Part shown: positions 53,964 through 54,012 of the stretch, one piece after another
Numbering within the stretch: position 1 is the stretch's first letter
Layout: each line of letters opens with the position of its first letter
DNA from: Octopus vulgaris
Taxonomy: Eukaryota
Direction of reading: 5' to 3'
DNA length: 64,000 nt
Assembly: GCA_951406725.2 (NCBI GenBank)
Contig: OX597820.1
Span: 34,782,001-34,846,000, forward strand
Made by a program: the position numbers and the translations under genes
The notes under the pieces: model-generated
The model's input: the letters and a program-made list of their open reading frames with translations, nothing else
What the model was told of the DNA's origin: nothing
Databases searched by the model: none

Positions 53964-54012
53964 AGGCTTGCTGAAGAGTACAGAAGTACGAAATCACAGG
54001 TGATACAAGTCT
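53964..54012 (+). ncRNA. Type I hammerhead ribozyme (canonical core)
   Basis: Stem I AGGCTTG/CAAGTCT; CTGAAGA 53971-53977; stem II GTAC-AGAA-GTAC; GAAA 53990-53993; stem III TCAC-AG-GTGA; ATA triplet, predicted cleavage after 54005. Confidence 0.85.

Follow-up and report, generated by a model that had tools for sequence, protein, structure and literature searches.

A hammerhead ribozyme motif of a dispersed, non-coding tandem-repeat family in Octopus vulgaris with a Penelope-like insertion footprint

The hammerhead motif at positions 53964-54012 of the 64,000-nucleotide stretch of Octopus vulgaris DNA analysed here (hereafter, the window) very probably belongs to a non-coding, 457-481-bp tandem-repeat family, and the island that carries it appears to be a truncated, inverted copy that was likely inserted into (TA)n by a Penelope-type reverse transcriptase/endonuclease acting in trans. 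Judged on sequence and fold criteria, this family is a new family of animal non-LTR retrozymes. Among the titles and abstracts listed in full-text searches of the literature, we found no description of retrozymes in octopus.

A type I hammerhead in a two-armed island

A preliminary description of this DNA had reported a compact hammerhead with every core nucleotide present, and our reading of the sequence agrees. The motif lies on the + strand and has the CUGANGA...GAAA...UH core, the three stems and the open stem I of a type I hammerhead. Stem I (53964-53970 with 54006-54012) comprises seven pairs, including one G-U, and stem II (GUAC/GUAC with an AGAA loop; 53978-53989) comprises four, both as originally proposed; the core segments CUGAAGA and GAAA occupy 53971-53977 and 53990-53993, respectively. 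The triplet AUA (54003-54005) places the predicted cut between A54005 and C54006. Stem III, described earlier as closable, does close: its strand (53993-54004, +) is self-complementary except for a central AG and, as a hairpin, forms four pairs (A15.1-U16.1 plus three) round a CAGG loop. A fifth pair, C53997-G54000, would shrink the loop to 2 nt and is formable only between two molecules.

A strict descriptor matched the 64-kb window once and matched none of 100 locally dinucleotide-shuffled windows, and a looser descriptor added four window matches, each with a one-pair stem II. CUGANGA...GAAA cores that might form a stem II also occur at 34856 (+), 37900 (-), 39362 (-) and 61528 (+), where closing stems I and III are absent under the descriptor used here. 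Rfam gave no gathering hits in the window, and hammerhead families were absent from its 33 matches at E<=10. Rfam miRNA matches at 53568-53705 were rejected as an artefact of the fold-back of a neighbouring element.

The roughly 340-bp island between (TA)n tracts that had been noted around the motif spans 53769-54109 and resolves into two arms of the repeat family. The sense arm (53859-54109, +) covers unit positions 183-452, is 5'-truncated, carries a 19-nt deletion after 54045 and ends at S1, one of the two 3' ends that characterise the family (S1 follows unit position 452, and S2 follows unit position 122). The inverted arm (53769-53863, -) covers unit positions 2-122, has lost ~26 nt internally between GAAAA repeats and ends at S2. 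The arms meet at an inversion junction (53859-53863), where a 5-nt overlap, ATTTA, is common to both, and each arm runs outward into a target tract: (TA)n at left (53704-53768) and a (TA)n-rich tract at right (54110-54199). This arrangement, with S2 at left and S1 at right, is that of the family footprint described below.

The window copy diverges by 1.3% from the nearest copy and by 3.7% from the median subfamily copy. Because it contains one hammerhead and less than one repeat unit, it can produce no unit RNA. The island is a defective, solitary, 5'-truncated two-armed copy of a dispersed tandem-repeat family, and no feature singles it out as active. It would cut only on + strand read-through, and then probably slowly, and the folding models discussed below suggest that a solitary motif of this kind probably cuts weakly. 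A tRNA-derived SINE was rejected as the origin of the island (0 tRNA genes in the window), and a weak check for a host gene, covering 56 ORFs of at least 90 aa in 40-64 kb, revealed no convincing exon.

Neighbouring elements

Window positions 53412-53703 hold one end of a second element, which is present in high copy (1307 candidates); this end is two-armed and embedded in TA. A minimal type I hammerhead is found in longer copies of this element (L008, L016, L098 and L197), where stem II is long and loop 3 is a palindromic ACGU; the window copy retains the GAAA...GUA half only. The fold-back junction of the window copy lies at or adjoining the predicted cut site, and junctions vary around local palindromes in 17 copies. 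Co-occurrence of the two neighbours (2/66, with a third case just outside the kept locus) is close to that at PLE (Penelope-like element) loci (2/60), which suggests independent insertions. Elsewhere in the window, positions 12693-13031 contain a 173-bp tandem dimer that we take to be tRNA-like SINE sequence.

A dispersed family of tandem units

The repeat unit is 457-481 bp long, with a GC content of 33-34% and no LTR, and in tandem copies the spacing is likewise 457-481 bp, each unit directly abutting the next. At least 151 matches were identified in the 2.8-Gb genome from the 40 of 1512 candidates that were scored. Exact pattern searches of the genome gave 23 matches for a tight pattern and 631 for a degenerate core pattern, against 0 for its reversed control; the family core pattern had no matches in metagenome and viral contigs. 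Some family loci hold two or more units in a row, each with one type I hammerhead, and arrays reach 31 units. When folded as circles, units are predicted to be 64-66% paired, with z scores of -5.2 and -9.1 relative to 40 shuffles. Contigs from two runs guessed to be RNA and from two unlabelled runs cover the family unit, possibly in another species or subfamily. One such contig goes back 455 nt, which fits tandem DNA and a circle equally, and the contigs reveal no ends.

Conservation and covariation of the ribozyme

An alignment of 63 family copies (47 distinct rows) provides a view of how the motif has been maintained. Stem cells are paired in 98.4% of 701 cases, as compared with 22-36% in slid controls. 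Two pairs are altered on both sides between subfamilies in a manner that preserves structure: one stem I pair changes from U-A to C-G in 6/47 distinct rows, and one stem II pair changes from G-C to A-U in nine rows, with a further three showing G-U. These compensatory changes go back to two events that the subfamilies inherited, with few independent ones, and a pair-count shuffle test gave 296/500. The core is intact in 57/63 copies. U4, G5, A6, A13, A14, U16.1 and A17 are invariant (63/63), and position N7 varies freely (A 32, U 24, G 4, C 3). Covariation and core conservation in the family thus support the identification of the motif as a genuine hammerhead under selection.

A16.2 is present in 62/63 copies, as is the AUA triplet, and AUA, read across the alignment, is the family's normal triplet and no defect. 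AUA is workable as a hammerhead cleavage triplet. GUC and AUC are named as the best triplets in the portion of PMC9217987 covered here. Loop 3 is CAGG in 50 of the 63 copies, CUG in 9, CAUG (a perfect palindrome) in 3 and CACG in 1.

Insertion footprint and template

We defined the footprint of the family from 66 de-duplicated insertions taken from the top-scoring matches, a sample biased to long, young copies. The 3' ends of these insertions fall at two fixed sites ~130 nt apart, S1 and S2, each followed by (TA)n, and the 5' ends are scattered. Two-armed insertions account for 36/66 (34 S1+S2 and 2 S2+S2) and one-armed insertions for 28/66 (21 S1 and 7 S2), with two unclassified. Traits of PLE-mobilised sequences are present: 5' truncation, an inverted arm, a tail at one end and a microsatellite target. 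In the covered parts of the literature, PLEs are described as 5'-truncated, with partial tandems, a 5' copy in inverted orientation, one end that bears a tail of 30-40 bp and a microsatellite bias (PMC8557442), and a PLE protein cuts AT-rich DNA on both strands and begins cDNA at a pair of internal sites in the RNA, by which the tail is defined (PMC11167929).

An alternative is that the repeat spreads as DNA, through satellite expansion and fold-back rearrangement in TA tracts, with the hammerhead a relic. This explanation draws on a 31-unit array (L189-L190; G000:C1, ~64.640-64.655 Mb), in which 481-bp units are 99.9% alike and variants recur at scattered units, as from unequal crossing-over or conversion. 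The same array ends at S1/S2 and is two-armed like other family insertions; it may have arisen as a rolling-circle product of 15 kb or by expansion at a later time, or it may reflect the assembly. Dispersal of the family across many chromosome-scale contigs, the pairing of S1 with S2 in 34/36 two-armed insertions, the fixing of 3' ends at two sites while 5' ends scatter and the structure-preserving changes between subfamilies all argue against spread as DNA, which we regard as very improbable. Insertion by a Penelope-type enzyme is the reading that we prefer.

The position of the cut site within insertion arms bears on the nature of the template. Arms cross the cut site in 91/110 cases (at least twice in 20), and in no arm does the start fall within 5 nt of this site. 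Since these loci had first been found with hammerhead-containing queries, the search was redone with the 3' cleavage product alone. In 28 of the 30 loci considered (from 46 matches), the copy runs on upstream through stem III, and two loci break within ~7 nt of the cut site. Read-through of the cut site in most arms thus indicates that the template is not mainly a cut linear unit, and a circle or an uncleaved multimer is the likely template on this sequence evidence. Tandem monomers within a locus show a median difference of 0.8%, against 2.2% to the family median and 0.7% to the nearest other locus, and a rare variant is common to both monomers in 24/54 pairs; within-locus similarity and variant sharing are thus compatible with a circle and with an uncleaved multimer. 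In the covered portions of the sources, a circular template has been proposed for PLEs (PMC4209133), and unprocessed RNA is the main insertion substrate of an anole PLE in vitro (PMC11167929). A circular template would fit the read-through data.

Candidate helper elements

Two young autonomous PLE families that encode a reverse transcriptase (RT) and GIY-YIG are abundant in the genome, with intact frames of 811 aa and 775 aa. Both families include inverted pairs and (TA)n-flanked ends. Pfam identifies RVT_1 alone in the 811-aa frame; recognition of the GIY-YIG and CxxC motifs was by visual inspection. A young autonomous TA-targeting PLE at L104:597-4689 has a CX4CxxC linker and a pair of ORFs that overlap (495 and 811 aa), and by eye a hammerhead-like motif, with a U3-A8 core and a palindromic loop 3, is found towards its 3' end, in the vicinity of L104:4510-4545. 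The second young autonomous PLE (775-aa frame; L200-L222) has two 3' ends ~30 nt apart in (TA)n. The unit has no homology to these two families beyond matches of ~18 nt. Because neither family shares ends with the unit, we infer mobilisation in trans from the footprint alone.

The similarity of this footprint to that of PLEs also raises the possibility that the island is the pLTR or 3' end of a coding Penelope-like element that lost its ORF by 5' truncation. Consistent with such an origin, Xenopus retrozymes derive from pLTRs according to the covered part of 10.64898/2026.07.22.740005, and the loci examined here are only a part of the family. Several observations nevertheless make this origin improbable. 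Within arrays, each unit joins the next directly, with no ORF, over as many as 31 units, and an RT/GIY-YIG ORF between pLTRs is absent from the family loci examined, which are thus not autonomous PLEs. No element-linked ORF of at least 150 aa was found in the 73 family loci scanned, the ORFs of this size within them being unrelated LINE/PLE fragments, simple repeats and a host-like exon. The two autonomous families checked also have unrelated ends. We accordingly retain the reading of a non-coding unit that is likely mobilised in trans.

Single and double hammerheads

The preliminary description proposed that the motif could cut any + transcript as a monomer, a claim that is probably overstated according to folding predictions made with an energy model that ignores Mg2+ and tertiary contacts. 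The predicted energy of the stem III strand is +0.4 kcal/mol as a hairpin and -11.2 kcal/mol as a two-strand duplex, and duplexes of the natural loop-3 variants range from -9.1 to -15.8. The 3' half of stem III resembles the core, and the 5' half is therefore able to pair with the core UGA. This off fold (core UGA with stem III UCA) has a predicted probability of 0.67 in the 49-mer, 0.96 in 53930-54050 and 0.38 and 0.85 in two longer stretches, and the stem III hairpin does not exceed 0.15 in these four contexts. Relative to the predicted minimum, the hammerhead fold lies at +0.9 kcal/mol in the 49-mer and at +3.5-5.0 kcal/mol in longer contexts, including 53930-54050.

Tandem motifs are predicted to behave differently. 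In 6/6 natural tandem pairs the predicted double hammerhead is favoured over two single hammerheads, by 3.0-7.3 kcal/mol, and in 3/6 it is also the minimum when the fold is left unconstrained; these six come from eight pairs, two of which were dropped since only one motif fitted the pattern. Two window 49-mers are likewise predicted to co-fold as a double hammerhead at -29.6, versus -19.4 for two monomers. In published accounts, in the parts covered, dimer-dependent motifs have a stem III of 1-2 bp (PMC4209133; PMC6765202; PMC6466107), shorter than that of the octopus motif.

The motif could instead be a competent monomeric ribozyme that cuts any + transcript after A54005, with dimerisation incidental, and we give this reading somewhat less than an even chance. 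It has in its favour the full core, a four-pair stem III that exceeds the 1-2 bp reported for canonical metazoan motifs (PMC4209133) and the small gap, in the bare 49-mer, between the modelled hammerhead fold and the minimum. The motif shows no clear distal stem I, and a U at 1.7 (60/63 copies) and a loop 2 that ends in A (48/63) could give a trans-Hoogsteen contact of the kind described in PMC9217987. In the covered text of PMC7229834, cleavage rates of ~0.1 and ~0.8 per min are given for mussel and coral monomers, respectively, and most invertebrate retrozyme hammerheads are efficient cutters. Other features of the family weigh against a competent monomer: the competing UGA:UCA fold and rare stem III hairpin predicted in all four contexts, the C-G pair that a monomer could not close and that is kept in 47/47 distinct rows, a loop 2 that ends in G in 15/63 copies and the placement of U1.7 opposite an A in stem I. 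For Xenopus retrozyme dimers, 1/9 cleaved in vitro (10.64898/2026.07.22.740005, covered part). On balance, the models lead us to expect, with reasonable confidence, faster cleavage as a tandem, and we consider detectable cleavage of the monomer in vitro about equally probable either way.

A proposed cycle

We propose that a tandem copy would be transcribed and that adjacent hammerheads would pair their self-complementary stem III strands to give the predicted double hammerhead, from which unit-length RNA would be cut out. The retrozymes of coral, mussel and axolotl suggest by analogy that the unit would next be closed by ligation into a circle with extensive pairing, where a lone motif is predicted to tend to the off fold. 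An enzyme would presumably nick both (TA)n strands and prime cDNA at two fixed internal sites ~130 nt apart, and the cDNAs would extend around the template across the ribozyme and become joined in head-to-head orientation.

A bolder version of this cycle, which taken as a whole we find conceivable yet doubtful, casts the ribozyme as a built-in copy-number switch. In a one-unit RNA, the 5' strand of stem III would pair with the catalytic UGA, turning the ribozyme off and keeping the circle as a template; in a two-unit RNA, stem III would pair with the stem III of its partner, turning the ribozyme on. Penelope-type copying of the circle from two sites would then give multi-unit arms, possibly including the 15-kb array. 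If this version were true, the family would record in the genome how an animal retrozyme undergoes rolling-circle retrotransposition, a process that has been proposed and is yet unseen in the literature covered.

As a single motif the window hammerhead is ordinary, and the family is useful test material. Its young copies with fixed priming sites, its natural loop-3 variants (near-palindrome, perfect palindrome and triloop) and the intact candidate helpers offer a test of retrozyme write-back into genomes and of whether monomer/dimer folding controls cleavage.

Comparison with known systems

The comparisons that follow are with the covered parts of the cited sources. The octopus family resembles PLEs in 5' truncation, partial tandems, the inverted 5' copy, the one-end tail and the microsatellite target (PMC8557442; PMC11167929), and it resembles PLE pLTR hammerheads in having a palindromic stem III suited to dimers (PMC4209133). 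It differs from PLEs in that the unit lacks an RT/GIY-YIG ORF, in a tail of ~130 nt (S1-S2) rather than 30-40 bp and in stems I and II that are canonical (6-7/4 bp), unlike those of the minimal motif.

Closer parallels are provided by metazoan non-LTR retrozymes (PMC7229834; 10.64898/2026.07.22.740005). Like these, the octopus family has non-coding units in tandem that each hold one type I hammerhead, a low GC content, no LTR and a highly paired predicted circle, and it ranges from monomers to long arrays in a genome that also contains PLEs. The octopus unit, at 457-481 bp, is slightly longer than the 150-450 bp quoted for non-LTR retrozymes, and its stem III is longer and self-complementary. 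(TA)n targeting, two fixed 3' ends and inverted arms are undescribed in the retrozyme literature covered. The main text of 10.64898/2026.07.22.740005 names three insects and one coral as its invertebrates. The octopus family, known from DNA and predicted folds, also differs from non-LTR retrozymes in that no sequence-related PLE was found for its unit among the two families checked.

The double hammerheads of newt satellite 2, axolotl retrozymes and ASBVd(+) provide a further point of comparison, as they similarly consist of two tandem motifs that merge stem III (PMC7229834; PMC6466107). In those systems stem III has 1-2 pairs, whereas four are possible in octopus, and the octopus monomer, unlike those motifs, is predicted to be held back also by a competing pairing of its core.
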